From NCBI GenBank assembly GCA_964606955.1, contig CAZSHZ010000093.1, positions 1 to 58,231 of the forward strand: a stretch of DNA of 58,231 nucleotides, read 5' to 3'. A program made the translations under genes and the position numbers. Shown piece by piece: positions 23,487-45,200 of this stretch; within the stretch, counting starts at the first letter, position 1, and the number at the start of each line of letters is the position of its first letter. Origin of the DNA: an uncultured Nitrospirota bacterium (GTDB taxonomy: Bacteria; Nitrospirota; Nitrospiria; SBBL01; CAZSHZ01). The notes under the pieces were generated by a model. That model was not told where the DNA came from, did not search any database, and saw nothing but the letters and a program-made list of their open reading frames with translations.

Positions 23487-24281
23487 TTGTGGGTTTTCGC
23501 GCTGCTCGTCTCCCTCTTGTTCGTCGGATGCTCGGCAACCCCCTCCGACATGGTCCGGGTCCCCGCGGGAGAATTCATCAGGGGCACGGATGAGGAGGAT
23601 GTGGAACATAAGGCCGACGAATTCGGGATCGTCAAGCCCTGGTTCGTCGATGAACACCCGATGCGCAAGATCCGCCTTCCGGAATTCAAAATCGACCGTT
23701 ATGAAACGACCAACGAACGGTACCTTTCGTTTGTCCGCGCGACAGGACATCGTCCTCCCCCCCACTGGAACTCTGGGGTGCCCGACGAAAAGATCTTAAA
23801 GAAGCCGGTTGTCCTGGTCACCTGGGATGATGCGCGGGCGTTCTGTCGCTGGGCCGGGAAGAGGCTCCCGACCGAGGCCGAGTGGGAGAAGGCCTCGCGG
23901 GGGGAGGACGGCCGCCCTTATCCCTGGGGCTCCCGTTTCGAGACGAACCGGGCGAACGTTGGGGGGTCCTACGGCGACCTCCTCCCGGTCGGCACCTTTG
24001 AATCGGGAAAGAGTCCCTACGGCGCCTACGATATGGTCGGAAACGTCTGGGAATGGGTGGAGGATTGGTACAAACCCTATCCGGGAAACGGCTATGAGAA
24101 CCCGAATTTCGGGGAGAAGGTCCGGGTGATCCGGGGGAACTCCTGGTCCACCATCGGCCACTTCCCTCCCGAGATCCATCGCGAACTGGTGGAGCACCAC
24201 TCCACGACGACATTCCGCCTCTTCGCACGGCCCGACTCGGTGATTGCCGACGTGGGGTTCCGATGCGCCAAAAGCCGCTGA
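23487..24281 (+). CDS. FGE-sulfatase (SUMF1/EgtB/PvdO) family lipoprotein, lacking the FGE catalytic cysteine pair
   Basis: LLFVGCSA lipobox-like signal. VTWDDARAFCRWAGKRLPTEAEWEKASRG, GNVWEWVEDWY, IRGNSW and GFRCA. No Cys after RGNSW. Confidence 0.8.
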   Translation: MWVFALLVSLLFVGCSATPSDMVRVPAGEFIRGTDEEDVEHKADEFGIVKPWFVDEHPMRKIRLPEFKIDRYETTNERYLSFVRATGHRPPPHWNSGVPDEKILKKPVVLVTWDDARAFCRWAGKRLPTEAEWEKASRGEDGRPYPWGSRFETNRANVGGSYGDLLPVGTFESGKSPYGAYDMVGNVWEWVEDWYKPYPGNGYENPNFGEKVRVIRGNSWSTIGHFPPEIHRELVEHHSTTTFRLFARPDSVIADVGFRCAKSR

Positions 24282-24325
24282 AGCCTTTTAAAACTTCAGG
24301 GATCATCGCCCTCCCCCTCCCCTGG

Positions 24326-25669
24326 ATGACGCCGCAGGAGGCCGCCGCCCGCCTCCGTTCGGAGAGACTCGTCCTCCTTGAGAGTCCGCCGGGCTGCCCC
24401 GTTCCGGCGACCTCCCGTTACTCTTTTCTGGCCGTCGATCCTTTTTTGACGATCACCTCAAGAGGGGAGCGGACGGAGATCAACGGGGCGGATCAGCCGG
24501 GAGACCCCTTTCACATCTTAAAAGAGCTGCTGGCACGGCACCAGACGCCCCGGGTGGCGGGGCTCCCCCCGTTTCAGGGAGGCGCTGCGGGATATTTCGC
24601 CTACGATCTTGTCCGACATCTCGAGAGGGTCCCACTCTCCCCGTGCGACCAGAAGGGGCCGGAGATGGCGATCGGATTTTACGACCTCTGTCTTGCCTGG
24701 GACCATGCAGAAGAGAGCCTGACCGCCATCTTTTCTCCTGCCGGACGCCGAAGCGGGCCCGCCCTTCGTGAGGAGGGAGAGGCGCGGCTCTTTCGCCTGT
24801 GGGAACGCCTCCAAAAGAGGCCGGAAAAATCGACGTTTCGCGCCGCGCCGCGCGACCTGCAGGGAAACATGACGCGGGAGGGGTTCCTCGCCGCGGTCTT
24901 AAGGTGCAAGGAGTACATCGCCGCCGGGGACGTCTTTCAGGTCAACCTCTCCCATCGTCTTACCCTTCCGTTTCGCGGAGATCCCTTTGCCTACTACCGC
25001 CGTCTGATGTCAATCAATCCATCGCCGTTCTCCTCCTTCCTGGAGTTTCCCGATGTCTCGATCGTCTCCGCCTCGCCGGAGCGGCTGGTCCGTCTCCTGC
25101 GCCAAGAGGCGGAGACCCGGCCGATCGCGGGGACGCGCCCTCGGGGTAAAAGCGCACGGGAGGAGGAGAGGATGCGGCAGGAACTCCTCGCAAGCCCGAA
25201 GGAGCGGGCGGAGCATCTGATGCTCGTTGATCTTGAGCGGAACGATCTCGGCAGGGTCGCCCGATACGGGACGATCAAGGTGGATGAGCTGATGACGCTG
25301 GAGAGGTATTCTCATGTCCTTCATATCGTCTCGAATATCAGGGGAGAACTCCCGGAGGGACTCGGGCCGGTCGATCTGCTGCGAGCGGTCTTTCCGGGGG
25401 GGACCGTGACCGGCGTCCCGAAGATCCGCTGCATGGAGATCATCGCAGAACTGGAGCCGACGTCGCGCGGGATCTACACCGGCGCGATCGGCTATCTCTC
25501 CTTCTCGGGCGATATGGATCTGGCGATTCCGATCCGAACGGCGGTCATCTCGCAGGGGAAAGCACACATTCAGACAGGGGCCGGCATCGTCGCGGACTCG
25601 ATTCCCGAGGCGGAATATGACGAGACGATGGCAAAGGCGGCTGCGCTCCTTCAGGCATTGGGTAAATGA
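24326..25669 (+). CDS. chorismate-utilising enzyme, component I (aminodeoxychorismate/anthranilate synthase family; PabB-like by context)
   Basis: Chorismate-binding domain motifs (SPERLV, PIAGTRPRG, DLERNDLGRV, FPGGTVTGVPK, GAIGY, GAGIVADS). 4-nt overlap with a class IV aminotransferase-fold gene. Start at 24326 preferred over 24263, which overlaps the previous gene. Confidence 0.75.
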   Translation: MTPQEAAARLRSERLVLLESPPGCPVPATSRYSFLAVDPFLTITSRGERTEINGADQPGDPFHILKELLARHQTPRVAGLPPFQGGAAGYFAYDLVRHLERVPLSPCDQKGPEMAIGFYDLCLAWDHAEESLTAIFSPAGRRSGPALREEGEARLFRLWERLQKRPEKSTFRAAPRDLQGNMTREGFLAAVLRCKEYIAAGDVFQVNLSHRLTLPFRGDPFAYYRRLMSINPSPFSSFLEFPDVSIVSASPERLVRLLRQEAETRPIAGTRPRGKSAREEERMRQELLASPKERAEHLMLVDLERNDLGRVARYGTIKVDELMTLERYSHVLHIVSNIRGELPEGLGPVDLLRAVFPGGTVTGVPKIRCMEIIAELEPTSRGIYTGAIGYLSFSGDMDLAIPIRTAVISQGKAHIQTGAGIVADSIPEAEYDETMAKAAALLQALGK

Positions 25670-26523
25670 ACTGGATCTGGGTCGACGGAGGGCTCCATCC
25701 GGTCCGACGACCCGTAAAAGGGGCCCTCTCCCCACTGGACCGCGGCCTCTTATATGGGGACGGACTGTTCGAGACGCTTCGAATCGAAAATGGCCGCCCG
25801 CTCTTCTGGGACGAGCACTTCGAGAGGCTCGCGAAATCGGCCGGACGGATCGTCCTCCTTCTTCCCTCGCGACGCTCTCTGGGGGCCGCGCTTGCAAAGA
25901 CATTGGCCGCGAACCGAATGGAGAGAGGCCTTGCCCGCCTTACCGTCACCCGGGGGAGCGGGACCGCGTCGAACGCTCCGGCGCTGGCGCCGCCGAAGAG
26001 AAGCCAGCCCTCTCTTATCGTCACCTTGAGGAGACGGACGTTCTCAGAAGAGGCGATGCGGGCGACGATCTGCCGGACAAGGCGCGAGGGGACCTACGGG
26101 CTGAAGAGCACCAATCTGATCTGGGCGGTCCTCGCGCAGGCCGAGGCGGAGGAAAAGGGGGCCGACGAAGGGATCGTCCTCTCGCACGACGGCCGGATCG
26201 TCGAGGGGACGATCACCAATATCTTCTTTGTCCGAAAAGGGGTCATCAAAACCCCTTCAGAGGCCTGCGGGATCGTCCCAGGGATCACCCGCCGGCTCGT
26301 CATAGACCTCTGCGCGAAAATGGGGCTCCGGGTCGAGGAGGGGACCTTCTCCCCTTCCGACCTTCTCTCCTCGAACGAAGCGTTTCTCACCGGAACCGGA
26401 GTGGGTGTGCGGCCGCTGATCCGGGTCGACCAGAAGAAAATCGGCCGGGGGGAGAGCGGAGCAATCACAAATTTACTGGCGAAGGAATACGAGCGACTGG
26501 TGAAGCGGGAGGCTGAAGAGTAG
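25666..26523 (+). CDS. class IV aminotransferase-fold protein (aminodeoxychorismate lyase PabC-like)
   Basis: RGLLYGDGLFETLR, the Lys-containing GLKSTNL region, EGTITNIFF and size (285 aa). Translationally coupled to the PabB-like gene. Confidence 0.65.
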   Translation: MNWIWVDGGLHPVRRPVKGALSPLDRGLLYGDGLFETLRIENGRPLFWDEHFERLAKSAGRIVLLLPSRRSLGAALAKTLAANRMERGLARLTVTRGSGTASNAPALAPPKRSQPSLIVTLRRRTFSEEAMRATICRTRREGTYGLKSTNLIWAVLAQAEAEEKGADEGIVLSHDGRIVEGTITNIFFVRKGVIKTPSEACGIVPGITRRLVIDLCAKMGLRVEEGTFSPSDLLSSNEAFLTGTGVGVRPLIRVDQKKIGRGESGAITNLLAKEYERLVKREAEE

Positions 26524-28110: not shown

Positions 28111-28533
28111 ATGAAGTTCTCGGCAAAAGTCGAATATGGGGTCTTTGCGGCGATCGATCTGGCAGCCAACTATGAGGGGGGTGCGGTCCGCGGGAGGGAG
28201 CTTGCGCAGCGCCAGGGGATTCCACTCCGTTTCCTAGAGCAGGTGATGAACGGTTTAAAGCAGCGCGGAATTGCGATCAGCGTGCGAGGCCCGCATGGGG
28301 GATACGCCCTGGCAAAGCCCCCTGATCAGATCCGGCTGTCTGAGGTAATCACCGCCCTGGACAGCGGAGAGCGGCCGCGAAAATCGAGCGAGCCGGGCGG
28401 CTGGGCAGGCCGGGAGATCCTCAATGAGGTCAAAAAAGAGATGGAGGGATTCCTTTCGGAGACGACCCTCCGCGATCTCGCCCGGCGGAAGGGAGAGAAG
28501 GAAGAGCGGCGTTTTTTGATGTACCACATCTAA
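28111..28533 (+). CDS. Rrf2-family transcriptional regulator without any cysteine (CymR-like)
   Basis: MKFSAKVEYGVFAAIDLA winged-helix N-terminus. The 140-aa product contains no Cys. Confidence 0.8.
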   Translation: MKFSAKVEYGVFAAIDLAANYEGGAVRGRELAQRQGIPLRFLEQVMNGLKQRGIAISVRGPHGGYALAKPPDQIRLSEVITALDSGERPRKSSEPGGWAGREILNEVKKEMEGFLSETTLRDLARRKGEKEERRFLMYHI

Positions 28534-28540
28534 AGAGACC

Positions 28541-30259
28541 ATGGAGCGAAAATACCTCGACACGGACATCCTGATCATCGGAGGGGGAACGGCCGGCTGC
28601 ATGGCCGCCGTTGAGACGAAGGAGCGCTATCCGCAGCTGAAGGTCGCGATCCTGGAGAAGGCGCATATCGACCGCTCCGGTTGCCTGGCCGGGGGGATGA
28701 ACGCGATCAACGCCTATCTGAATCCGGGCGAGACGCCGGAGTCGTTTGCCCGTTACGTCCGGTTCGACTCCTGCGGGTTGATCCGGGAGGACCTGGTCAC
28801 CTCGATGTCCGAGCTTTTTGAATACGCGGTAAAAAAGGTCGAGAAGTGGGGGCTTCCGATCCTCACCGACAAGAACGGGAACTATGTCCCGCGCGGCCGG
28901 TGGAATATCAAGATCAACGGAGAATCGCTCAAGCCGATCCTGGCAAAGGCCGCCCGGGAAGCAGGGGCCGTCGTCCACAACTGGATCGTCGTGACCAATC
29001 TTTTGACAACGGAGTCCGATCCGCGAAGGGTCATCGGAGCGACCGGTTTCTCGATCCGGACCGGGGTCTTTTTCATCGTCCGCGCCAAGGCGACGATCAT
29101 CGCCACCGGCGGCGCCGCCGGGATCTATCGATCCCTCAACGTCTTCGACGCGCAGCATAAGACTTGGTATTGCCCCTACAACACCGGAGCGGGATACGCG
29201 ATGGGGATACGGGCCGGCGCGGAGATGACCTCCTTCGAGATGCGGTACGTCGCCTTGAGAACCAAAGATGTCATCGCCCCGACCGGAACAATCGCGCTTG
29301 GGGTGAATGCCCCACAGATCAATGCAAAGGGGGAAAAGTTCATGCAGACCCGCTACGCCCATCTCGGCGGGGATGCCGCACCCACCCCCTATCGCGCCTA
29401 CGCCCCGATTCAGGAGATCAAGAGCGGGAGAGGACCGGTCTACCTCGACACCCGTGGCATCACCCCCGAGCAGGTCCATAACTTAAAGGGGGCATTTCTC
29501 GACATGTACCCCTCGCAAGTCCTCTACTGGGTCTCCAACGATATCGATCCCTCAAAAGAGCCGGTCGAGGTGCAGACGACCGAACCCTATATCGTCGGTG
29601 GGCATTGCCAGGCAGGCTATTGGGTGGATGGGGAGCGGCGCACAACCCTCCCCGGCCTCTATGCGGCGGGGGATGTGGCCGGCGGCGCGCCGTTCAAGTT
29701 CATCTCCGGCTGCTGGGCGGAGGGGGTCATCGCGGCTCGGGCAGCCGGCCGAGACGTCATCGCTCTGCCGTGGGAGGTGATCGACCCGGGTCAGGTAGAG
29801 ACCGAGGAGAAACGGGTCTTCGCGCCTCTACGCGCCCACGGCAAAATCAGAGGCGGCGTGATCCCCTATGAGATGGAGGTCCGCCTTCAAAAGATCATGG
29901 AGGAGTACGCAGGCGGCGCCTCCAGCTACTATGAGATGAACGAGGAGAGGCTTCTCATCGCCCGGCGCGAACTGGCAAGGCTCCCCGCCCAGACCCCGCA
30001 TCTGATGAGCGATGATCTGCATTCTCTCATGAAGGCGCACGAGATCATCGACCGGATCGACGTCGCGCGCGTGCTGGTGGAGCATCTGATCTATCGAAAA
30101 GAGACCCGCTGGCCCTCGTATCAGACCCGCGTCGATTATCCCCAGCGGGATGATGAGAACTGGTTAAAATTCGTTAATTCCGTCGCAAAAAACGGCGAGA
30201 TCGTGATGATGACGCGCCCCTATGAACAGATGATTGCCGGGGACCGCTACAAACCTTAA
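28541..30259 (+). CDS. aprA: adenylylsulfate (APS) reductase alpha-subunit-like flavoprotein
   Basis: FAD motif DILIIGGGTAGC. ...RSGCLAGGMNAINAYL...YVRFDSCGLIREDLV resembles archaeal/bacterial AprA as I recall it. Followed by an AprB-like ferredoxin and sat. At 572 aa it is shorter than typical AprA. Confidence 0.7.
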   Translation: MERKYLDTDILIIGGGTAGCMAAVETKERYPQLKVAILEKAHIDRSGCLAGGMNAINAYLNPGETPESFARYVRFDSCGLIREDLVTSMSELFEYAVKKVEKWGLPILTDKNGNYVPRGRWNIKINGESLKPILAKAAREAGAVVHNWIVVTNLLTTESDPRRVIGATGFSIRTGVFFIVRAKATIIATGGAAGIYRSLNVFDAQHKTWYCPYNTGAGYAMGIRAGAEMTSFEMRYVALRTKDVIAPTGTIALGVNAPQINAKGEKFMQTRYAHLGGDAAPTPYRAYAPIQEIKSGRGPVYLDTRGITPEQVHNLKGAFLDMYPSQVLYWVSNDIDPSKEPVEVQTTEPYIVGGHCQAGYWVDGERRTTLPGLYAAGDVAGGAPFKFISGCWAEGVIAARAAGRDVIALPWEVIDPGQVETEEKRVFAPLRAHGKIRGGVIPYEMEVRLQKIMEEYAGGASSYYEMNEERLLIARRELARLPAQTPHLMSDDLHSLMKAHEIIDRIDVARVLVEHLIYRKETRWPSYQTRVDYPQRDDENWLKFVNSVAKNGEIVMMTRPYEQMIAGDRYKP

Positions 30260-30270
30260 GAGGAGGACAG

Positions 30271-30651
30271 ATGCCGGTCTGGGTCGATCCTGAGAAGTGC
30301 AACGGCTGCTACGGCGCGGCCCAACCCCCTTGCCTGCGGATGTGCCCCGGAGATCTGATCGTCAAGGACATGAAGGCCGACAAGGCCTATCTGAAATATC
30401 CGGAGGACTGCTGGGACTGCCTCCCCTGCGTGAAGGCCTGCCCGGAGGAGGCGATTGAGTTTGTCCTCTCCTACCAGATCGGCTTTAGAAACGCCCGGCT
30501 GATTCCGCATGTCGCGAAGGGCCGCGACAAGATTACCTGGGAGTGCCACGACAGCCGCGGGAATATCGAGGAGTTTGTGATTCCGACGAAGATCCTCCCG
30601 ATGGCGCTCGACGAGAAGGTCGAGGGGGCCCCGATCGATTTCTCAATATGA
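30271..30651 (+). CDS. aprB: APS reductase beta-subunit-like 2x[4Fe-4S] ferredoxin
   Basis: Cys spacing C-x2-C-x7-C-x3-CP (CNGCYGAAQPPCLRMCP) and C-x2-C-x2-C-x3-CP (CWDCLPCVKACP) matches the AprB pattern. MPVWVDPEKCNGC start. Confidence 0.7.
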   Translation: MPVWVDPEKCNGCYGAAQPPCLRMCPGDLIVKDMKADKAYLKYPEDCWDCLPCVKACPEEAIEFVLSYQIGFRNARLIPHVAKGRDKITWECHDSRGNIEEFVIPTKILPMALDEKVEGAPIDFSI

Positions 30652-31820
30652 TGGCTTCGATCCCGCACGGAGGAAGGCTGGTCACCCTTTTGGCGGAGCA
30701 GCGGGATCGGGCCGATCTGGCCCGCAAGGCCTCGGGCCTGCCGAGGCTGGTGCTGACGGCCCGCCAGATGTCGGACCTGGAGCTTCTCGTCCACGGGGCG
30801 CTCTCCCCGCTGGAGGGTTTCATGGGGAGCGCCGAGTTCGAATCGGTCCTCTCCGGGATGCGACTCCCCTCCGGGCTGATCTGGTCGATTCCGATTACCC
30901 TGGCGACAAGCCGCGAGACGGCCTCCCAACTCCGCGAAGGGGGGGAGGTCGCCCTTGCCGATCCCTCCGGGAGGCCTGTGGCCCTTCTCGCGTTGGCCGA
31001 AAAATTCCCTCACAAAAAAGAGCCGGAGGCCTTGAGCGTCTACGGGACCGCGGATCCGAAACACCCCGGGGTCGCGTATGTCCTATCGATGCCCCAGATC
31101 CTTTTGGGTGGGAAAGTGATCGCTTTCTCCGATCTCCTTGGGACCGACTTCTCTGAATTCAGGCTGACGCCAAGTGAGACGCGCGGGCTTTTTGAGGAAC
31201 GGGGATGGAAGCGGATCGTCGCCTTCCAGACCCGGAACCCGATTCACCGGGCCCACGAATATATCCAGAAGTGCGCGCTTGAGATCGCCGACGGACTCCT
31301 GGTTCACCCGATCGTCGGGGAGACAAAGGGAGACGACATCTCCGCCGAGGTTCGGATGCGCTGTTACCGCGTCCTCCTCGACAACTATTATCCCAAGGAG
31401 CGCACGTTACTCGCCGTCTTTCCGGCCTCCATGCGGTATGCCGGCCCCCGGGAGGCGATCTTTCACGCCATGATCCGGAAGAACTACGGCTGCACCCACT
31501 TCATCGTCGGCCGCGACCACGCCGGAGTCGGAAACTACTACGGTCCCTTCGACGCCCAGAAGATCTTTCACCGCTTCACCGAACAAGAGCTCGGAATCAC
31601 GCCGCTCTTCTTCGACAACACCTTTTACTGCCGCCGTTGCCTCGGGATGGTATCGGCAAAGACCTGTCCCCACGACGCCACCGAGCATATCGCCCTGTCC
31701 GGGACAAAGGTTCGGGAGATGTTGATCGCGGGGATCGCCCCGCCGCCCGAATTCACCCGTCCCGAGGTCGCCGCGATATTAATTGAGGCGATGCGTGACG
31801 GGACAGGGCCGAAGCCGTGA
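30648..31820 (+). CDS. sat: sulfate adenylyltransferase (ATP sulfurylase)
   Basis: QTRNPIHRAHE and GRDHAGVGNYYGP motifs. Start at the ATGATG overlapping the aprB stop (30648/30651); the track extension upstream lies inside aprB. Confidence 0.9.
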   Translation: MMASIPHGGRLVTLLAEQRDRADLARKASGLPRLVLTARQMSDLELLVHGALSPLEGFMGSAEFESVLSGMRLPSGLIWSIPITLATSRETASQLREGGEVALADPSGRPVALLALAEKFPHKKEPEALSVYGTADPKHPGVAYVLSMPQILLGGKVIAFSDLLGTDFSEFRLTPSETRGLFEERGWKRIVAFQTRNPIHRAHEYIQKCALEIADGLLVHPIVGETKGDDISAEVRMRCYRVLLDNYYPKERTLLAVFPASMRYAGPREAIFHAMIRKNYGCTHFIVGRDHAGVGNYYGPFDAQKIFHRFTEQELGITPLFFDNTFYCRRCLGMVSAKTCPHDATEHIALSGTKVREMLIAGIAPPPEFTRPEVAAILIEAMRDGTGPKP

Positions 31821-31937
31821 CGGGGCGTCTTTACCCCAGGGGTTGACCTTCCAGTCGCTGGAACGCGTATCTCAATATGGAAAAGCTTCCCTTAGGTTGG
31901 GAAGCCCGGGAGCGTTTGGCTCCCTCAGCACAGGAGG

Positions 31938-32594
31938 TTGAACATGAAAAGGGTGATCTGGCTCTCGATAATCCTGATTTTCAGTTTCGGTTGTGTTGCG
32001 TCCCCCGTTACGGCGCAGGAGCACCCGGATCGGAATAAGTTTCACGCCGACGTGGCGCATACGTTACTTGATATGAATACGACGCTCGACATGATCGAGG
32101 CCTTTCGCGCCCAAGAGAAGATGCCTCCCGACCGCGACGCCGTCCATGAGAAGGCTGCACACGGTTTCAAGCACGGGCTGGAGCTCTTCGGGGTCGAGGT
32201 CAAAATGAAGGAGCACGCTGATCGAAACAAGTTCCATGCAGATGTGGCCCATTCGCTTCTGGATATGAATGTTGCCCTGGACCGGATCGAGGGCTTCCGC
32301 GCGCAGGGGACGATGCCACCGGATCGGGATGAGATGCATGAGAAGACGGCCCACGGTTTCAAGCAGGCGCTGGAGCTCTTTGGAGTTCAGTTCACCATGC
32401 CGAAGCATCCCGATCGAAACAGATTCCATGCTGATGTGGCGCACGCGCTCCTGGAGATGAATACCACACTGGACATCATTGAGAGCTTCCGGGCCGAGCA
32501 GAAGATGCCCCCGAACCGGGATGAGATGCATGAGAAGGCGGCCCACGGTTTCAAGCAGGCGCTGGAGCTCTTTGACGTGAAGATCAAAATGTAA
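31938..32594 (+). CDS. secreted His-rich protein built from three tandem 64-aa repeats (unknown family)
   Basis: Signal peptide (VIWLSIILIFSFGCVASPVTA), then three units of HPDRNKFHADVAHxLLDMNxxLDxIExFRAQxxMPPDRDxxHEKxAHGFKxxLELFGV. GGAGG lies before the ATG. Confidence 0.65.
   Translation: MNMKRVIWLSIILIFSFGCVASPVTAQEHPDRNKFHADVAHTLLDMNTTLDMIEAFRAQEKMPPDRDAVHEKAAHGFKHGLELFGVEVKMKEHADRNKFHADVAHSLLDMNVALDRIEGFRAQGTMPPDRDEMHEKTAHGFKQALELFGVQFTMPKHPDRNRFHADVAHALLEMNTTLDIIESFRAEQKMPPNRDEMHEKAAHGFKQALELFDVKIKM
32019..32591 (+). repeat. three tandem ~192-nt coding repeats (32019-32210, 32211-32402, 32403-32591)
   Basis: Repeat period of exactly 64 codons (His29, His93, His157 are equivalent). High identity is visible at both protein and DNA level. 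Confidence 0.85.
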
Positions 32595-32610
32595 GAAAGG
32601 AGGCTTAGGC

Positions 32611-33330
32611 ATGGACACGGGATTCGAGGGGAAGATCGAAGAGGTCTCGCGGCCCCTCTCCGATGGCGACCCGCGGCGTCGCCTTGCAGCCTTGCGGAAA
32701 CTGACCGAGATCGGGATCTGCCTCCCCTGGGAGGAGAGGCCAGTCGTGGTCCGACGGATGGCGGAACTCGTCGGGGACAGGGAGCCCTTTATTCGCTGGA
32801 ATCTCGCCATCTCGCTCGGTATTCTCGGTCATGAAGAGGGGCTCGTGCCGCTCGGAAACCTGGCAACGGATGAGCATGCGAATACCCGCTTTCGGGCCGC
32901 TCTCGCGATCGGGCTGATCGGAGAGGAGCGAGGAATCGAAACCCTGGAATCGATGGTCGGCGATCCCTACGAGATCGGGGGCCATGCGGCAGTCCGCGCC
33001 TTCGTGGCGATCGCCCTGGGAAAACTGGGGAGGGAACGCGGGATTCCTCTCTTAAAGAAGCTCGCCGCCGACGCCGATCCAGTCGTCCGGTGGCATACCG
33101 CCGTGGCCCTGGGAGATATCGGCCATGTGACGGGAGTTCCCGTCCTCTTTAAGTTGGCGGAAGACCCGATCCCCTTTGTCCGCGCCCACGCGGCAATCGC
33201 CCTCTCCCAGATCGGGGACCCAAGCGCGATCCCCTGTCTAGAACGGATCGCGAGCGATCCGGTGCCTAAAGTCGCCAAGATGGCGGAGGAATCCCTCCGG
33301 CTTCTCAAATCTCTAGGTCCAGACAGGTGA
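32611..33330 (+). CDS. HEAT-repeat (PBS-lyase-type) protein
   Basis: Recurrent DPxVRxxAAxALGxIG(D/H) units (for example DPVVRWHTAVALGDIGH, PFVRAHAAIALSQIGD). AGGAGG lies 8 nt upstream of the ATG. Confidence 0.8.
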   Translation: MDTGFEGKIEEVSRPLSDGDPRRRLAALRKLTEIGICLPWEERPVVVRRMAELVGDREPFIRWNLAISLGILGHEEGLVPLGNLATDEHANTRFRAALAIGLIGEERGIETLESMVGDPYEIGGHAAVRAFVAIALGKLGRERGIPLLKKLAADADPVVRWHTAVALGDIGHVTGVPVLFKLAEDPIPFVRAHAAIALSQIGDPSAIPCLERIASDPVPKVAKMAEESLRLLKSLGPDR

Positions 33331-33740
33331 GGATCGGCCAAGCGGGGAGAGAGGTAGGCCTGCATCCCAGGACGATCCGCTATTACGAGGAGATCGGGCT
33401 CCTCAGGCCGAAACGGAGCTTCAGTCCCCACGGGAACGGATATCGAATATACGGCCGAGACGATCTCGAACGCCTCACGTTCATCAAAGAGGCGAGGCTT
33501 CTGGGGTTCTCGCTAGCCGAGGTCAAAACCGCGCTCCAATCGATAGACGAGGGCTGCTGCGAAGCCGCGCGTCCGCTCATGACCCGCCTCCTGGAAGAGA
33601 AACTCCCCGAGATCGACAGGCGGGTTCAAAACCTCCAGGGGCTTCGCCGTCGGCTCCTCCGGCTGAAGGAGCAGGTCGCCTCAAGGCGACAAACCGTTGC
33701 CACTCCCTCTTGCAAAGGAGTCACCAATTGCGCCTTCTAG
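33327..33740 (+). CDS. MerR-family transcriptional regulator with C-terminal cysteines (metal-sensor-like)
   Basis: IGQAGREVGLHPRTIRYYEEIGLL HTH, a coiled-coil segment, Cys-Cys at DEGCCEA and the C-terminal SCKGVTNC. GTG start overlaps the previous stop (GTGA). Confidence 0.8.
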   Translation: MRIGQAGREVGLHPRTIRYYEEIGLLRPKRSFSPHGNGYRIYGRDDLERLTFIKEARLLGFSLAEVKTALQSIDEGCCEAARPLMTRLLEEKLPEIDRRVQNLQGLRRRLLRLKEQVASRRQTVATPSCKGVTNCAF

Positions 33741-33750
33741 GCCCCTACGG

Positions 33751-33779
33751 TTGACTGAGCACGCGCTCTTTCTTATAGT
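33751..33779 (+). promoter_or_regulatory. candidate promoter TTGACT-N17-TATAGT with the dyad GAGC-N4-GCTC in the spacer
   Basis: Read directly from the DNA. Lies between the merR-like stop (33740) and the YVTN gene start (33795). Confidence 0.35.
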
Positions 33780-33794
33780 TCCGTCGTTCCGTCC

Positions 33795-34745
33795 ATGAGC
33801 GTGATTGTTTTCATCCTGGCATTTTTCATCTCAACGGCTGTCCGGGCCGAGCCGGTCTACACGGCGGATGAGAAAGGGGGGACGATCTCGGCGGTCGATG
33901 CCGAGACCGGGGAGTTGATCGGCCGGCTCGAGGGGCTGGCCGCGCCGCATAACATTCATCTCGGACCAGACGGCCTTCTCTACGCAACGGAGGGGAAGGC
34001 CGATCGCGCGGTCCGGATCGATCCGAAAAAGTTGGCGATCGAGGCTCGTTTTCAGACCGGAAAAGCCCCCGCCCACATTTTCGTCACGCCGGACCGAAAA
34101 TATATCCTTGTCACCAACACCGGCTCGGACGACCTGTCGGTCATCAACTACAACTCCCTCTTTACGGTCCGCCGGCTCGCGGTGGGAGACGGTCCGCACG
34201 GGCTGTCCGTCTCCGCAGACGGCCGGTGGGCGTTCGTCCCCAACTGGAACAGCGGGGATCTGGCGATCGTCGATCTGGCCGAGCTGAAGCTCGCCGCGCG
34301 CATCCCAATCGGCAAGGTCGGCGTTCAGTCATGGGTCACCCCCGATGGCCGGTTCATCTTCGTCACCGATCTGAAGTCAAACAGCGTCTCTAAGATCGAT
34401 GTGGCCGGCCGGAAGGTCGTCGCCACAATCCCGGTCGGCGAGGCCCCCGCGCAACTGGCGGTGACCCCCGACGGGAAGTGGATGATCTCCTGCGACCAGA
34501 AATCGGGAACGATCACCGTCGCGGAGGTGGAGAGCGGGCGGGTCGTCAAAAAGGTGCCTCTGGGGAAATGGCCGCATGGGATCTCTTTCTCCGCCGACGG
34601 CCACTTCGCGTATGTGAGCAATACCGAAAGCAATGATCTGTCGGTGGTCGATCTTGAAAAACTGGTCGAGGTCAGACGGATCTCTGTCGGCCTCGGACCG
34701 AACGGCGTGGCGGCCAGTTATCCGATTCGTCCGCAGAAACCCTAG
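33795..34745 (+). CDS. YVTN-family beta-propeller repeat protein (secreted)
   Basis: Signal peptide. Repeated units of the form Y(V/A)(T/S)NxxSxxLSV(I/V)D and P(H/A)G(L/I)xx(S/T)PDG. Confidence 0.75.
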   Translation: MSVIVFILAFFISTAVRAEPVYTADEKGGTISAVDAETGELIGRLEGLAAPHNIHLGPDGLLYATEGKADRAVRIDPKKLAIEARFQTGKAPAHIFVTPDRKYILVTNTGSDDLSVINYNSLFTVRRLAVGDGPHGLSVSADGRWAFVPNWNSGDLAIVDLAELKLAARIPIGKVGVQSWVTPDGRFIFVTDLKSNSVSKIDVAGRKVVATIPVGEAPAQLAVTPDGKWMISCDQKSGTITVAEVESGRVVKKVPLGKWPHGISFSADGHFAYVSNTESNDLSVVDLEKLVEVRRISVGLGPNGVAASYPIRPQKP

Positions 34746-34796
34746 TCTCCTTTACTTTTTCTCATTCTGATATTATGATGTTGTTTCGCTCTTATC

Positions 34797-35717
34797 ATGA
34801 ACGAGAATTCCCTTAAATCGATCTTAAAAAAGATCGCCTACCCGGACGACGCCAAGGTCATGCAGCAGATCGTCGACCAGCAACTGGCTGTGAAACTCCG
34901 GATGGGTCAGGTCAAGCGGAAGATCGTTGTCCTCTCGGGCAAGGGGGGGGTCGGCAAAAGCATGACGACCGTGAACCTCGCCCTCGCCTTCGCCCGGAAG
35001 GGGCACAAGGTCGCGATCCTCGATGTCGATCTGAACGGGCCGTGCGTGCCGAAGATGCTCGGGATAGCCGGGAAACGGTTCGAGATCACTCCGGAAGGGG
35101 CGATCCCGCCGGTCGGGCCGCTCGGGATCAAGGTCGGCTCGATGGACTTCTTCCTCTCGGATGAGACGGCGCCGGTCCGCTGGAAAGGGCCGATGGACCT
35201 CTCGCCGGTCTGGCTCGGGATGATGGAGATGAGCGTGATCCGCGAATTTTTGGCCGATATCGTCTGGGGCGAGGTCGATTTTCTCTTCACCGATCTCCCC
35301 CCGGGTGCCGCCGCTGATAAGCCTCCGGTGATCGCCTCGTTCATCCCGGAACTCGACGGCGCGGTCGTCGTGACGACCCCTTCCGAGGTCGTAAAGAGCA
35401 TCGTGAAAAAATCGATCGTCTACGCCCGCGACTTGGGGATCCCGATCCTCGGGATGATCGAGAACATGAGCGGCGCCTTCTGCCCGAACTGTTCCACCGA
35501 GGTCCATTTTTTCGACAGCGATTCGCAGGCAATGGCCGAGGAGTTGTCGGTCCCGTTTTTGGGAAAGATCCCGTTTGATGGCGAGATCTCCCGGGCCTGC
35601 GATCGGGGCGAGCCGCTGTTGGATTCCGATCACCCGATCGCGCGGCGCTTCACCGAGATTGCGGAGAAGATCGAGCAATTCCTCTCGTTTAAAAGACTAC
35701 TGGCGGAAAAACTATAG
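34797..35717 (+). CDS. Mrp/NBP35/ApbC-family Fe-S cluster carrier ATPase
   Basis: Deviant Walker A LSGKGGVGKS and the CxxC motif (FCPNCS) following GMIENMS. Confidence 0.9.
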   Translation: MNENSLKSILKKIAYPDDAKVMQQIVDQQLAVKLRMGQVKRKIVVLSGKGGVGKSMTTVNLALAFARKGHKVAILDVDLNGPCVPKMLGIAGKRFEITPEGAIPPVGPLGIKVGSMDFFLSDETAPVRWKGPMDLSPVWLGMMEMSVIREFLADIVWGEVDFLFTDLPPGAAADKPPVIASFIPELDGAVVVTTPSEVVKSIVKKSIVYARDLGIPILGMIENMSGAFCPNCSTEVHFFDSDSQAMAEELSVPFLGKIPFDGEISRACDRGEPLLDSDHPIARRFTEIAEKIEQFLSFKRLLAEKL

Positions 35718-35730
35718 CGGAGATGCGAAA

Positions 35731-36423
35731 ATGAAGTTTGTCTGCATGAAATGCGAAAAATTCATGATGTTCGAGAAGGTGGAAAATCCGGCCTCCGAAT
35801 CGCTCGGCGTGACGTTCGGCTGTCCGAGTTGCGGGAACAAGGTGGCGATGGTCACAAACCCGGGCGAGACCAGCCTCGTTCATGCGCTCGGCGTCAAGCT
35901 CGGGGGGCGGACCGCGGCGGCGGAGCCGATGGAGCTGACACGCGAGACCTTAAAGGAGGGGGCGCCGGCGACGACGGCCGCCGCGACGGCGACCGCGGTA
36001 GAAGCCGCGGTTGAAAAGTCGGGGGGCACCTGTCCCTTTTCATCGATGCTCGCCGGAATGGGGGGGGCGGAGGGCGCAAAGGAGACCGGCCCGGGACCGA
36101 TCTCCTGGTCGGCCGAGGCCGAGGAGCGCCTCTCCAAGATCCCGACATTCATGCGGCCCATGGTCCAGATGGGGATCGAGGCCTACGCAAAAAAGAACGG
36201 CGTCTCGATGATCACGGCGGAGGTCATGGACGCCTCGCGCAACGATTCCGCAGAGCTGGTCTGGACGGCGGCCGCCGAGTCCCGGCTTTCAAACATCCCC
36301 TCGTTCATCCGGCCGATGGCGCGCAAAGAGATCGAGCGGATCGCCAAGGAGAAGGGGTACAAGCAGATCGACGAGAGGATGATGGACGAGGCGAAAGAGA
36401 AGTTCATGTCGATGGGATATTAA
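35731..36423 (+). CDS. zinc-ribbon protein with two PCP_red-like (protochlorophyllide reductase subunit-B C-terminal-like) domains
   Basis: Start at ATG 35731 (MKFVCMKCEKF...GCPSCGNK gives CxxC...CxxC). Ala-rich linker, then the duplicated units ISWSAEAEERLSKIPTFMRPMVQMGIEAYAKKNG and LVWTAAAESRLSNIPSFIRPMARKEIERIAKEKG. Confidence 0.55.
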   Translation: MKFVCMKCEKFMMFEKVENPASESLGVTFGCPSCGNKVAMVTNPGETSLVHALGVKLGGRTAAAEPMELTRETLKEGAPATTAAATATAVEAAVEKSGGTCPFSSMLAGMGGAEGAKETGPGPISWSAEAEERLSKIPTFMRPMVQMGIEAYAKKNGVSMITAEVMDASRNDSAELVWTAAAESRLSNIPSFIRPMARKEIERIAKEKGYKQIDERMMDEAKEKFMSMGY

Positions 36424-36446
36424 AAAGCGGAAGGGGGCACGCCCGA

Positions 36447-37139
36447 ATGCCGACCGCCGGCGAGACCTTCGTCCATGAACTGGAACAGGAGATCCTCAAA
36501 CATCCGGCGGTCCATCACCCCTTCTTAAAACGGTTTGCCTCCGAGCCGCTCTCGCTCGATCAGATCCGGACGTTCGGGCTTCAGCATTACCAGTTGGTAA
36601 AGGTCTTCGTGAACTACATGACGAATCTCCTCCCGAAGATCCCGGATAAAGACGCCGCGCGGCTCTTCCGGGTCGTCTTCAACGACGAGTACGGCCAGTG
36701 GACGATCTTCCGCAGCCATCCCGCACTCTACCGGAATTTTTTACGCGCGCTGGGGCTCCCCGACGAGGCCTGGGGGCGCGTGCCGCTCCTCCCCGAAACC
36801 TCGGGATATATCGAGGGACATATGCGGTTGACCCGCGAGGGGGACTTTCTCGTCGGCTTAGGCGCGATCGGGCCTGGGCATGAGTTCTCGATTCCGACGA
36901 TGTTCGCCTATCTGGTGAAGGGGTTTAAGAAGAACAGCGGCCTGTCGCCCTCCGAGATAGAGTACTTCACGATGCACATCGAGGAGGATGTCGAGCACGC
37001 GAAGGTCTTCAACGAGCTGATCGTCCGGCACGCCGCCCCCGAGGAGAATCAGAAGAGAATCCGCGACGGCGTGATGACCTCGCTCCGCTGGCGCACGCAC
37101 TTCTGGGACGGCTGCTCCCGCGCGGTATTCGGGGGCTGA
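36447..37139 (+). CDS. haem-oxygenase-like iron-containing redox enzyme family protein (TenA/PqqC/CADD-like fold)
   Basis: HPAVHHPFLKRFASEPLSLDQIRTFGLQHYQLVKVF..., the later EFSIP...HIEEDVEHA pattern with E/H ligands, and size (230 aa). Confidence 0.6.
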   Translation: MPTAGETFVHELEQEILKHPAVHHPFLKRFASEPLSLDQIRTFGLQHYQLVKVFVNYMTNLLPKIPDKDAARLFRVVFNDEYGQWTIFRSHPALYRNFLRALGLPDEAWGRVPLLPETSGYIEGHMRLTREGDFLVGLGAIGPGHEFSIPTMFAYLVKGFKKNSGLSPSEIEYFTMHIEEDVEHAKVFNELIVRHAAPEENQKRIRDGVMTSLRWRTHFWDGCSRAVFGG

Positions 37140-37371
37140 GCCCAACAGAGGAGAGTCCACATGACCTACGACATCTATCGTTCATTGATGATCGAAAGAA
37201 AAGATAAAAGTGGTGGCAATACTTTCGGAAGAATCAACGCAGTGAGGAAAGCCTTGACCGATCTCGGGATTCACCTCTCAAAGTAAGCAGCATCCCACAT
37301 CAGGCCTTTCGGAGCTTCTTTCTACCTCTCTCGACGGAAGCAAAGCAAACTGGACGCAACTGTATCAAGTT

Positions 37372-37401: not shown

Positions 37402-37665
37402 ATGAAGTTTGCCAACGTGAGGGAATTAAAAAATAAGACTTCAGCGGTCCTGCGAAGAGCGGAAAAAGACGATGTGGTGATCACCTCGAAGGGAAAACCT
37501 CGGGCGATTATCACCGGAATCACCGAAGAGGACTTCGATGACTATCTCCTGGAGCGCAGCCCGAAACTCATCCAGGCCCTGGAGGACGCCTGGACCGAAT
37601 ATCTAAAAAAGGGCGGAATCAGTCTCGAAGAATATCTGAAGAAACGAAAGCGCAGGGGTGGATAA
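37402..37665 (+). CDS. Phd/YefM-family type II antitoxin
   Basis: MKFANVRELKNKTSAVLRRAEKDDVVITSKGKPRAIITGI is a typical Phd/YefM N-terminus. 87 aa. Confidence 0.85.
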   Translation: MKFANVRELKNKTSAVLRRAEKDDVVITSKGKPRAIITGITEEDFDDYLLERSPKLIQALEDAWTEYLKKGGISLEEYLKKRKRRGG

Positions 37666-37852: not shown

Positions 37853-38294
37853 TCAGACCTCCAGCCAGAAGGTGGCCGGGCCATCGTTTTCGATCTCGAC
37901 GAGCATCGAGGCCCCGAACCGGCCGGTCCGGACGGGACGGCCGGTGACCTGCTGCAGGCGGTCGCAAAAGAACCGGTACAGCCGCTCCGACTCGGGCGGC
38001 TTCATCGCCCGTTCAAAGCCGGGGGCGTTTCCCCTTTCGTAAGTCGGCGCAGAGCGTAAATTGCGAGACCACGAGGGACTCGCCGCCGATCTCCTCATTT
38101 GACAGATTCATTTTCCCGGCCGGATCGTCAAAAATCCGGAGACCAGAGATCTTCTTTGCCATCGCCTCGGCGCTCGCGTCCGTATCCCCGCTTGCAACAC
38201 CGAGGAAGATGACGATCCCGCGGCCGATCTCGGCGTGAATGTCCCCGGCGATCCGAACCGCGCCGCGGCGAACGCGCTGGATCAGCGCCTTCAC
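37853..38294 (-). pseudogene. dtd: D-aminoacyl-tRNA deacylase interrupted by a 1-nt frameshift in a G5/C5 run (or an assembly error)
   Basis: ORF 38013-38294 gives MKALIQRV...VVSQFTLCADLRKGKRP. ORF 37853-38098 continues in another frame with GFERAMKPPESERLYRFF...TGRFGASMLVEIENDGPATFWLEV. Deleting one G from GGGGG at 38021-38025 restores ...KRPGFERAM... Confidence 0.8.
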
Positions 38295-42201: not shown

Positions 42202-45200
42202 ATGCAGATCGCAGCAGCTTATAATTTTCGGAAGGGTTTGCTTATCTTCGCGCTGGTCCTGGCGGTCCCGGCGTGGGCCTTAGGCGCGGATAACGCAGAC
42301 CAAAACATCAACGACATGCACGCCATGCACGGCGGAACCGGCACCGAGGTCTCGCGAGAGAACGCGGGCCCCGCCCTCATGGGGGCCCTGACCAACCGCC
42401 TCGACTCCGAAATCGCGCGCGCAGGCGGCCAGATGGGCGGTTTTACCTCAAGCGGACAGGCGCACGCGATGTCGCAGGGGGTCCCACTTCGGATCTCGAC
42501 TACCGAGGAGTCTGTGACGTCGGGCGGCCGGTGCCCGGACGGGGTCCCCATCAAGAACTTCGATATCTCTGCGATCAACGTCCAGATTACCCTCAACCGC
42601 TTCATGCAGTTTTTCCCCGGCTACCTCTACGCCCTGACCGAGGATCTCCCGAAGGTCCGCGAGGAGGAGAAGAAGAACGCCGAGGCCCGGAAGAGCGCCG
42701 ATGAGTTCCGCGACGCCGGGGTCTCCACCGGACTTCAGGGCGATTTGATCCAGCCGCTGGTCATCCGCGCCGGCGCGGGCGACTGCGTCCGGATCATCCT
42801 CCGCAATCAGACGACGAACGAGGAGCCGGTCAGCATCCATATCCACGGTTCAAGCCTGATCATCCGCGCCACCGGCCAAGCGGCGACGATGATAAACAAG
42901 GACTCTCTCGTCATGCCTGGAAAGAGCCAGGAGTTTGAGTGGTACATCCCCGGAGACCAGCCGGACAACGCGCACCACTTCCACAGCCATGCGGTCCGCG
43001 AGCAGTGGAACCTCGGGATGTTCGGAGCGTTGGTGGTTGAGCCGCGCGGCTCGCGCTATCTCTCCCCCTGGAGCGGAAAAGAGATGAAGAGCGGGTGGAT
43101 GGCGATGATCGAGGACCCGAACGGTCCGGACTTCCGCGAGTTCGCGATCTTCTATATGGAGATCGGGGATGAGGTCGTCCGGATTCTCGACCGCAAGGGC
43201 GAACTCCTTCCGCAGCGGGACCCCATGACCGACACGTATCGGCCCGCCGCGCGCGGCCTCAATTTAAGGAGCGAGAACCATGGGACCCGCCTTACGCTCC
43301 AGAAGGAGAAGCACGGGATCCATGACGAGTCGATGGCCTACGGATCGTACACCTTCGGAGATCCGGCCACGACTGTTCCCCGCTCCTATCTCGGCGATCC
43401 GGTCAAGTTCCGGATGATGGGGGGGGCCGAGATCATCCATTCCCATCATCTTCACGGCGGAAGCGACCGCTGGCCGCGCTCCCCCGAGGCGGTCACGAAG
43501 GCGGAGTTTGACTTTGCCGCCACATCCAGCGGGACCGGACCGGTGAAGTTCCCGCCGATTCGGACCTCCTCCGAGCGGCTGGATGTCCAGGCGATCGGCG
43601 CCGCGGAATCATTTAACGAGGTGATCGAGTGCGGTTCCGGCGGCTGCGCCTACGGCGCCGGAGACTACACCTTCCACTGCCATATTCCTCAGCACTACGT
43701 GACCGGAATGTGGGGCTTCTGGCGGGTCTACACCACCCTTCAGGCGGCGGGCTCGCAGGACGACATCATGCCGGCGCTGGCGGAGCTCCCCGATCGGAAG
43801 GGTAAGATGAAGGAGGCGGTCGATTCCTCCAAACTGGTCGGCACCACAGTGGACTGGTTTGCCGGAAAGAAGTTCAAGATTACGGCGGACAAGACCGACT
43901 GGAGTGCAAATCCCCAGATGGTTTCGATCAAGGATTGGGTGGAGATGCAGCTTCCGGCCCAGGGACTTCCGGGCGGCCAGGAGGACGAGCATAAGCAGAT
44001 CGTCTCTTACGACGCTAGCGTCTATAACTGGAAGTGGGAGAGGAATGTCGCGTTGAACGAGCCCGAGACCAAGCAGGTCTGGGCCAATTATAAATCGCCT
44101 GCCCCGGGGAAACGGCTCCCGATCCGATGGGATTCGGCCACTGGCAAGCCCTCGATTCCGTGGGAGCGACCACACCTGGGTAAGCGCCCCCCATTCTCGC
44201 CCGACCACAATCCGGCCCCGTTCTTTGAGCCGATCCGGCTCAATAAGGATGGGAAACGGACGACCGAGCCGGCCCAGCCCGGGGAAAACGGCCCTTGGAG
44301 CCTCTGCCCCTCGAACGCGCCGCGCAAATACTACACGATCAACGCGATCGGACTTCCGATCACGTTGAAAACGGCGACCGCCAAAACGCCGGCGATCGTC
44401 GATCCGGACGCCCAGATCTTCGTCCTGGAGGAGGAAGAGGCGGCGGTCCGGGTGACACCCGCCAAGCAGGTGCCGCTGGCGATCCGCGCGAACGTCTACG
44501 ACTGCGTGGACGTCGTCTTCAAGAGTAAACTTCCGGACGACAAGCGGGTGGCCAATTCCAGCAAGGTCAACATGCACCCGCACTTCTTCCAGTTCGACAT
44601 CACCGCCACCGACGGGGTGATCATCGGATTCAACTATGAGCAGTCGGTCCGGCCGTTCAACCTGTTGAAGTCGGAAGACCGGGAAGAGACACACCACGGA
44701 ATGCCGATGCCGCAGAATACAACGCTGACAAAGGCGGCCAAGGCAGGGGATCTCTCGATTACGGTCGCCTCGACAGTCCGGCATATCGACGTGAACGAGG
44801 ACAAGTTCGACACCCCGATGTTCCACCCGGGAACTGTGATCGGAATCGGCCTGGACGGAGTCGGAGAATTCGAGGCGAGAAGGATCAAGGAGATCAATGG
44901 GAACAAGGTGATCTTCACCGAACCGCTGATCAACGACCACGCGGCCGGACGGATCGTCAGCGTTGAGTACGTCCGCTACCGCTGGTATCCGGACGTCGAT
45001 CTCGGGATCGTCTTCTGGCATGACCATGTCTTCGGGCTCGACTCCTGGGGACACGGGCTGTTCGGCTCGACGATCGTCGAGCCGCCTCGCTCCACCTATC
45101 ACGATCCAACGACCGGCAAGGAGGTCCGAAGCGGTCTGGTCGTCGATATCCACACCACCGATCCGGTCTCGGCAAAAGTGACAGGGAGTTTCCGGGAGAT

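Follow-up and report, generated by a model that had tools for sequence, protein, structure and literature searches.

A seven-gene stretch in an uncultured Nitrospirota bacterium is probably a mosaic of a MerR-type metal-response insertion and an independent mrp–PCP_red–HDO operon

We examined a run of seven closely spaced genes in a 58,231-nt stretch of DNA from an uncultured Nitrospirota bacterium (contig CAZSHZ010000093.1, positions 1–58,231; the whole stretch is referred to here as the window). The genes, g1–g7, encode in order an exported His/Met-rich repeat protein, a HEAT-repeat protein, a MerR regulator, a beta-propeller, an Mrp-type ATPase, a protein with a zinc ribbon and two PCP_red domains, and a haem-oxygenase-like di-metal oxidase (HDO). 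An initial annotation made from the sequence alone had joined all seven into one candidate metallocofactor-maturation or metal-stress system under the control of the MerR regulator. Our comparison with related loci indicates that this 5.2-kb stretch is probably a mosaic in which two independent modules, both of modest novelty, lie side by side, and that there is no seven-gene pathway. The features on which this reading is based are collected in Table 1.

Table 1. Genes and candidate promoters of the seven-gene stretch and its surroundings, in window coordinates.
Feature	Position	Strand	Details
PabB-like and PabC-like genes	24263–26523		Chorismate-binding enzyme and class IV aminotransferase; overlap 4 bp
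Rrf2, AprA, AprB, Sat genes	28111–31820	+	Backbone genes; directly 5' of mrp in relatives
MerR-type promoter/operator	31843–31873	+	TTGACC, 19-nt spacer, TATCTC; upstream of g1
g1	31944–32594	+	ATG with AGGAGG ribosome-binding site; the TTG start listed at 31938 lies 6 nt further upstream
g2	32611–33330	+	Cytoplasmic HEAT/PBS-lyase-type repeat protein; HEAT_2, E = 4.9e-53 (Pfam)
g3	33327–33740	+	MerR regulator; MerR_1, E = 3.4e-21; MerR-DNA-bind, 3.6e-13
Sigma-70-like promoter of g4	33751–33779	+	TTGACT, 17 nt, TATAGT; 10/12 consensus positions
g4	33795–34745	+	Exported YVTN/YncE-type beta-propeller; YNCE/YVTN, E = 1e-23; TIGR02276 repeats; signal peptide
Sigma-70-like promoter of the mrp operon	34751–34779	+	TTTACT, 17 nt, TATGAT
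g5	34797–35717	+	Mrp/NBP35-family P-loop ATPase; NUBPL/Mrp (PF10609), E = 1.2e-73, 248 bits
g6	35731–36423	+	Zinc ribbon, linker and two PCP_red domains, E = 3.3e-32
g7 (HDO)	36447–37139	+	Haem-oxygenase-like di-metal oxidase; Haem_oxygenas_2, E = 8e-28

All seven open reading frames are found on the + strand, separated by –4 to 54 bp, and the domain labels given earlier hold, with Pfam and NCBIfam in agreement for g2–g7 and no match to any family in either database for g1. The statement that this combination is absent from described pathways also stands. Two start codons deserve comment: g1 most likely starts at the ATG at 31944, behind its AGGAGG, and g6 most likely at 35731 (MKFVCMKCE...) and not at 35575, because all of its homologues begin there. 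The + strand run is longer than the seven genes and extends from Rrf2–aprA–aprB–sat on one side to a phd antitoxin gene ending at 37665 on the other, so the boundaries of the seven-gene set are arbitrary and the same-strand layout is unremarkable. A small open reading frame directly after the HDO gene (37161–37286; 41 aa, with a good ribosome-binding site) was considered as an eighth gene and rejected, as it is conserved in no related locus, and no riboswitches or regulatory RNAs were found in the region 28–42 kb. Positions 32545–36629 are reproduced at 99.7–99.9% identity by independent assemblies from three other sequencing runs, and since the g2–g3–g4–g5–g6 junctions are present in all three, the stretch is not an assembly chimera.

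The evidence that separates the two modules comes from gene neighbourhoods. Taking one genome per GTDB species we obtained 509 loci anchored on the PCP_red gene (g6), and compared all of the window proteins by tblastn with the best 80 of these, taken with 10-kb flanks. The mrp gene lies directly upstream of the PCP_red gene in all 80, and the HDO gene directly downstream in 26; these HDO-bearing loci are from Manganitrophaceae-, Troglogloeales-, related and some marine lineages, and the gene is absent from the Nitrospiraceae and Nitrospirales among the 80. Homologs of g1, g2, g3 and g4 were found in none of the 80 (0/80). They are also absent from four contigs in which the mrp–PCP_red–HDO triad occurs with differing, unrelated flanks (L089–L092; L numbers denote the loci and contigs compared) and from the closest relatives of the window (L096–L098; the closest relatives by g6 have 64–66% identity). 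When the search is anchored on g1 instead, no HEAT, Mrp, PCP_red or HDO gene is seen in any of the loci. The neighbourhood comparison with the PCP_red gene as anchor had been set beforehand as the check on which the one-system proposal was to stand or fall, and by it the seven genes are not co-conserved. What survives of that proposal is its parts: g1–g3 do form a metal-stress module, and g5–g7 are co-conserved and may act in metallocofactor handling, with the two halves evolutionarily independent of one another.

The position of g1–g4 is explained by comparison with six syntenic relatives (L002, L008, L014 and L096–L098), which share the order CNNM(–)–Rrf2–(TauE)–AprA–AprB–Sat–Mrp–PCP_red–HDO–...–AnmK(–)–ZnuA–ZnuC–ZnuB with a sat–mrp distance of 57–234 bp. 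The window has the same backbone, with PabC, CNNM and Rrf2 (28111–28533) upstream and AnmK–ZnuABC downstream, and the sole difference is 2.9 kb with g1–g4 between sat and mrp. As sat is directly followed by mrp in the six relatives, g1–g4 constitute a 2.9-kb insertion. We propose that Module A (~31.84–34.75 kb) would be this lineage-specific insertion and would contain an autoregulated MerR-type operon (promoter/operator–g1–g2–g3) plus g4 behind its own promoter, and that Module B (34.75–37.14 kb) would be an ancestral mrp–zinc-ribbon/PCP_red–HDO operon with its own sigma-70 promoter. No plasmid-borne copies of g1 or g6 were found.

The promoter architecture is in keeping with this division. 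The spacer of the promoter upstream of g1, TTCCAGTCGCTGGAACGCG (19 nt), holds the dyad TTCCAG-tcg-CTGGAA, and an over-long 19-nt spacer enclosing a dyad is characteristic of promoters that metal sensors of the MerR family activate, in which the spacer is usually 19–20 bp. There is one match to this motif in the window, compared with 0.04 expected by chance, and promoters of the same type (TTGAC[CA] and a –10 element separated by 19 nt that include a dyad) precede g1-like genes or merR–g1 operons at eight of the ten distinct g1-family loci, the window included (g1 homologues with such a promoter are those of L081, L083–L088, L094 and L095). It was not seen at the two most divergent g1-family loci, L082 and L093. 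The suggestion that all seven genes are governed by the MerR regulator finds no support here, as the operator occurs once, ahead of g1, and mrp keeps a promoter of its own: TTGAC[AT]-17-TA(T/G)A-type promoters are found at the same place before mrp in L002, L008, L014, L096 and L098, and from this conservation we conclude that the mrp–PCP_red–HDO operon has its own promoter.

Within the insertion, the g1 promoter appears to drive g1, the HEAT gene (g2) and merR (g3). A ribosome-binding site follows the g1 stop codon ahead of g2, and the GTG start of g3 overlaps the g2 stop codon (GTGA), which is why we consider g2 to be co-transcribed with g1 and merR. The placing of g2 between g1 and merR appears to be lineage-specific, and g2 is absent from all of the g1-anchored and g6-anchored loci. 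The candidate promoter of g4 is the best sigma-70-like site in a 10-kb scan, and the only relative of this YVTN protein in the g1-anchored loci is a weak one in L083 (~37% identity over ~114 aa), encoded ~3 kb downstream of the g1 homologue. We also note that in L085–L088 and L094 a second such element, TTGAC[CT]TTCCAG, is present on the opposite strand ~60–70 nt upstream of the g1 promoter, which suggests a divergent, MerR-controlled promoter for a rubrerythrin-like gene and small genes.

The g3 regulator has the winged helix-turn-helix and coiled-coil dimerisation helix of the MerR family, and its best solved relatives in the PDB are Bacillus MerR, CueR, Tn501 MerR and CadR. It has four cysteines, Cys77, Cys78, Cys129 and Cys135, of which the last two form a C-terminal C-x5-C pair 51 residues past Cys78. 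By comparison, the CueR pattern is Ser77 with C-x7-C and the MerR pattern Cys82, Cys117 and Cys126 (C-x8-C), and the position in the Ser77 region separates divalent-metal sensors from others. We suggest that a g3 dimer would sit on the dyad within the 19-nt spacer, and that a thiophilic metal bound by its cysteines would realign the –35 and –10 elements and so turn transcription on. The half-sites of the g1 operator, CCTTCCAG/CTGGAA, resemble the CueR box of the E. coli copA promoter (PcopA). The arrangement is thus like that of the CueR, ZntR and MerR regulons (E. coli CueR–PcopA, ZntR–PzntA and Tn501 MerR) in the MerR fold, the C-terminal Cys residues and the 19-nt spacer with its dyad. It differs from them in its Cys pattern (C77, C78 ... 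C129-x5-C135), which matches none of CueR, MerR and ZntR, and in its target, which is no efflux pump, oxidase or reductase and instead is a new periplasmic His/Met-rich repeat protein together with a HEAT protein. The MerR regulators beside g1 homologues are often Cys-rich at the end, with the motif CC(E/D)P(L/F)CxP(E/D)xCG (L081:1366–2175, L082:1074–1986, L083:9420–10010, L084:7069–7503 and L095:1760–2242); g3 of the window is without this tail, and L082 additionally encodes a small membrane protein which opens with the same motif.

The g1 protein carries a signal peptide and is built from three repeats of 64 aa, which are 72–76% identical to one another and are seen in the DNA as 192-nt tandem copies. 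In its mature form g1 contains 16 His and 12 Met and is free of Cys, and periplasmic proteins of this composition typically bind copper. Homologs are very rare: the family comprises 26 proteins among 5.8 billion clusters, and an exhaustive profile search of 1.84 billion proteins returned eight representatives at E <= 1e-3. Members carry either three repeats or one, and 4–5 His per repeat, plus Met, are conserved family-wide. The AlphaFold2 (AF2) model (predicted local distance difference test, pLDDT, 88; predicted template-modelling score, pTM, 0.81) has six helices in three helical hairpins, and a Foldseek search of the PDB gave no match with E < 0.3, the best having E = 0.3. Judged by these sequence and fold comparisons, g1 belongs to a new and very small protein family. 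We propose that it is exported and may buffer or pass on periplasmic metal by means of the 4–5 conserved His, plus Met, of each hairpin.

A MerR gene is adjacent to the g1 homologue, or two genes away from it, in every g1-anchored locus with usable flanks (L081–L084, L086 and L095), and a partial MerR gene lies near the g1 homologue at the contig end of L085. As MerR recurs beside g1 and the HEAT, Mrp, PCP_red and HDO genes do not, the conserved core is MerR plus g1. Other genes found near g1 homologues include those for a CopA-type ATPase and a cupredoxin in L083 and for CsoR and DsbD/thioredoxin in L081. Module A is of a known kind, being a metal-response operon of the MerR type; its periplasmic cargo is novel and very rare. 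A second exported His-rich helical repeat protein, unrelated to the first, is encoded after merR in L081 (2229–2675; 148 aa with HDQLHxMRxxLH-type repeats and no Pfam match).

In Module B, g5 has the deviant Walker A motif GKGGVGKS and a CPNC motif, the CPxC of a bridging cluster, and matches the Mrp/ApbC/NBP35 domain. Its proposed activity is to carry a bridging [4Fe-4S] cluster in an ATP-dependent manner, and it shares PF10609, GKGGVGKS and CPxC with the known ApbC/Mrp/NBP35 carriers, including Desulfovibrio MrpORP. Unlike ApbC and MrpORP it falls below both equivalog cut-offs, with 169.3 bits for ApbC (cut-off 348) and 266.4 bits for MrpORP (cut-off 450), the latter match covering only positions 2–250 of the 365 in the profile. 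It also differs from the known carriers in being always paired with a zinc-ribbon/PCP_red protein. We propose that this protein, g6, may be a dedicated partner or adaptor of Mrp. At its N-terminus is a four-Cys CxxC...CPxC zinc ribbon, and this is followed by a linker (window 35850–36090, residues ~40–120) that is predicted to be disordered (pLDDT < 50) and yet is conserved, with the motifs MVTNPGET, GVKLGGR and ELTRETLK and an invariant CPFS, and which resembles a peptide by which a partner protein is docked. In the AF2 model only the two PCP_red three-helix domains are confident (overall pTM 0.33).

Solved structures related to g6 are limited to the C-terminus of BchB and the orphan Asr4154 (PDB 2L09), and its best homologues among more than 1,200 are all from Nitrospirota close to Ca. 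Manganitrophaceae. We considered whether g6 could be BchB, a subunit of the dark-operative protochlorophyllide oxidoreductase (DPOR), and rejected this, as only PCP_red (two copies) matches, the Oxidored_nitro core is missing and TIGR01278 scores 75 bits against 490. The two confident three-helix domains are what g6 has in common with the C-terminal PCP_red of BchB/ChlB and with the stand-alone Asr4154. Unlike BchB/ChlB it lacks the nitrogenase-like catalytic domain, unlike either it has the N-terminal four-Cys ribbon and the linker with the invariant CPFS, and unlike the hosts of DPOR the organism here is not a phototroph. Literature searches covering PF08369/PCP_red, Nitrospira Mrp, Manganitrophus MerR and Nitrospirota HDOs gave no relevant publication, and in them we found no account of the Mrp–PCP_red pairing or of the triad. 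In one of the contigs carrying the triad (L092:4165–10709) the genes for Mrp, PCP_red and HDO are followed, on one strand and with tight spacing, by those for a protein with four PCP_red domains, NikR, an OprB porin and ZnuA.

The last gene of the operon, g7, has 199 homologues, the best listed of which bear Nitrospirota names wherever they are named, and in all 33 HDO-bearing loci examined (the 26 of the 80, L089–L092 and L096–L098) the HDO gene follows mrp–PCP_red. Among solved structures, CADD/4-aminobenzoate synthases are nearest to g7 (E about 1e-11, with ~25% identity to CADD), and all six metal ligands of CADD are kept, E81, H91, E146, H177, D181 and H184 of g7 corresponding to E81, H88, E142, H174, D178 and H181, and are invariant in 20 family members. 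The fold family and the six ligands are shared with CADD, BesC and PqqC-like di-iron oxidases. Unlike CADD, however, g7 is without the sacrificial Tyr27 and Lys152: the former is replaced by Leu, which is invariant in the family, and the latter also by Leu at a position that is hydrophobic (L/I) in the aligned family members. We propose that the HDO would be a di-metal, O2-activating enzyme which acts on a small-molecule substrate.

The surroundings of mrp suggest a link with sulfur metabolism. In the 62 loci for which the gene directly upstream of mrp was classified, it encodes a CysN/C-type sulfate adenylyltransferase/adenosine 5'-phosphosulfate (APS) kinase in 32, sat in three, a YyaL-type protein in seven and none of these in 20. 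The CysN/C-type loci have an NIR_SIR–TusA sulfite reductase, a PAPS_reduct protein and an Rrf2 regulator further upstream, and the Nitrospira-type loci with this sulfate-activation context are within L028–L080. Three further contigs (L096–L098) have sat directly before mrp. The occurrence of mrp–PCP_red behind two non-homologous sulfate-activation systems suggests a link to sulfur and iron-sulfur (Fe-S) assimilation, though this is suggestive and not universal.

How the seven genes relate to one another can be read in other ways. That they all serve one metallocofactor-maturation or metal-stress system under MerR control is what the shared strand and tight spacing would lead one to expect, plausible metal links can be drawn for every gene and no strong terminators lie between them; given that g1–g4 are missing from the 80 g6-anchored loci and from L089–L092 and L096–L098, that Mrp, PCP_red, HDO and HEAT genes are missing from the g1-anchored loci, that the operator lies only upstream of g1 and that mrp sits behind its own conserved promoter, we regard this as highly improbable. 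A weaker form, in which the modules are evolutionarily independent and read-through places mrp–PCP_red–HDO partly under MerR control here, so that metal stress raises the level of an Fe-S carrier, fares somewhat better. The g4–mrp distance is only 51 bp, there is no convincing + strand intrinsic terminator after g3 or g4, and Fe-S enzymes are targets of copper toxicity. The argument is nevertheless purely positional, the native mrp promoter has been kept and the arrangement is confined to one lineage, and we therefore think this local co-option unlikely. A tetrapyrrole or bilin theme running through the locus, as might be read from the labels 'PBS-lyase-type HEAT', 'haem-oxygenase-like' and 'protochlorophyllide reductase', was rejected as a coincidence of names, as the ligands of the HDO are those of a di-metal site, co-conservation does not extend to the HEAT gene and a tetrapyrrole enzyme core is missing.

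The roles of two individual proteins are also open to other readings. An exported protein that is predicted to consist of helical hairpins and is encoded behind a stress-type regulator could act in the periplasm as a stress chaperone or adaptor similar to Spy, CpxP and ZraP, induced by envelope or metal stress, and g1 would then not be a metal binder. We find this doubtful, as g1 matches none of these three proteins in sequence or fold and the invariant residues of its family are mostly His, with conserved Met, as in periplasmic metal sites; the two roles are moreover compatible, since ZraP has both. More broadly, g1 is like PcoE/SilE, CopM and ZraP/Spy/CpxP in being exported, Cys-free, helical, His/Met-rich and controlled by a metal-stress regulator. 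No similarity to these proteins was detected in either sequence or fold, and unlike them g1 belongs to a family built of one or three tandem 64-aa hairpins with a fixed His pattern. In the case of g7, its closest solved structures, its best NCBIfam family and the retention of all six metal ligands might indicate a CADD-type self-sacrificing synthase of para-aminobenzoate (pABA), with the triad serving folate synthesis. Against this, the match to the CADD family (TIGR04305) reaches 79.1 bits against a cut-off of 200, both sacrificial residues have become Leu, and PabB- and PabC-like enzymes are encoded in the window, from which we conclude that the classical pABA route is present. A part for g7 in pABA synthesis is accordingly judged unlikely from its sequence, and a folate-serving triad of this kind we consider barely credible.

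We thus return to the reading of two independent modules, against which a number of points weigh. All of the promoters in the locus are consensus matches only. There is no convincing intrinsic terminator on the + strand between g3, g4 and g5, and with none separating the modules, read-through from the MerR promoter into mrp could occur. Around g1–g4 we found no sign of a mobile element, be it a target-site duplication, direct, inverted or terminal repeats, a tRNA or a shift in GC; because insertion scars were not found, the direction of the event rests on parsimony, which across many lineages favours a gain here over many losses elsewhere. The reading leaves the roles of g2 and g4 without explanation, and an interaction of Mrp with g6 and HDO is something that we infer. 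The regulator, too, is atypical: g3 reaches about half the cut-off of every NCBIfam metal-sensor model (71 bits against 147.4 for CueR, TIGR02044, and 73.5 bits against 150.85 for the MerR Hg(II) sensor, TIGR02051), and with Cys77/78 near the position of CueR Ser77 and a C-x5-C pair it does not have the CueR pattern. Copper is our leading guess for the metal sensed by g3; it is favoured because the operator is CueR-box-like, because g1-type proteins are typical copper binders, and because CopA/cupredoxin and CsoR are neighbours of g1 homologues elsewhere. On present evidence, neither module is a categorically new system.

A more ambitious proposal can be made for the two modules jointly, namely that Mrp–PCP_red(–HDO) is a metallocofactor system specific to the Nitrospirota and linked with the assimilation of sulfur and that g1 founds a new periplasmic metal-buffering family under a non-canonical MerR sensor; we would put this forward tentatively, as a possibility that at present we lean away from. 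If it were true, Mrp–PCP_red(–HDO) might, for example, serve specifically in assembly of or delivery to sulfate-pathway enzymes of the siroheme-[4Fe-4S] or Fe-S type; the tetrapyrrole-associated PCP_red domains would then act as an adaptor and the HDO as an O2-dependent accessory enzyme. The seven-gene pathway is removed as a lead by our analysis and two sharper units take its place. One is g1 with its MerR regulator, a clean system in which to look for a new metal-binding fold and for the metal sensed by an unusual MerR, in a lineage near the manganese-oxidising Manganitrophaceae. The other is the Mrp–PCP_red pair, which was seen in every one of the 80 Nitrospiria loci sampled, the nitrite-oxidising Nitrospira included, and could reveal an unrecognised Mrp/NBP35 partner and a first function for stand-alone PCP_red domains.

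Three further features were noted downstream of the HDO gene. A protein of 1594 aa is encoded at 42202–46986, in which matches to multicopper-oxidase domains are found only near residues 180–280, the remainder being without a Pfam match. The gene at 37402–37665 encodes a Phd/YefM-type antitoxin, has no recognisable adjoining toxin gene and is absent from the syntenic relatives. Finally, the D-aminoacyl-tRNA deacylase gene (dtd) at 37853–38294 on the – strand appears to be split into two overlapping frames of 93 aa and 81 aa, which may reflect a frameshift, making this a pseudogene, or a sequencing error.

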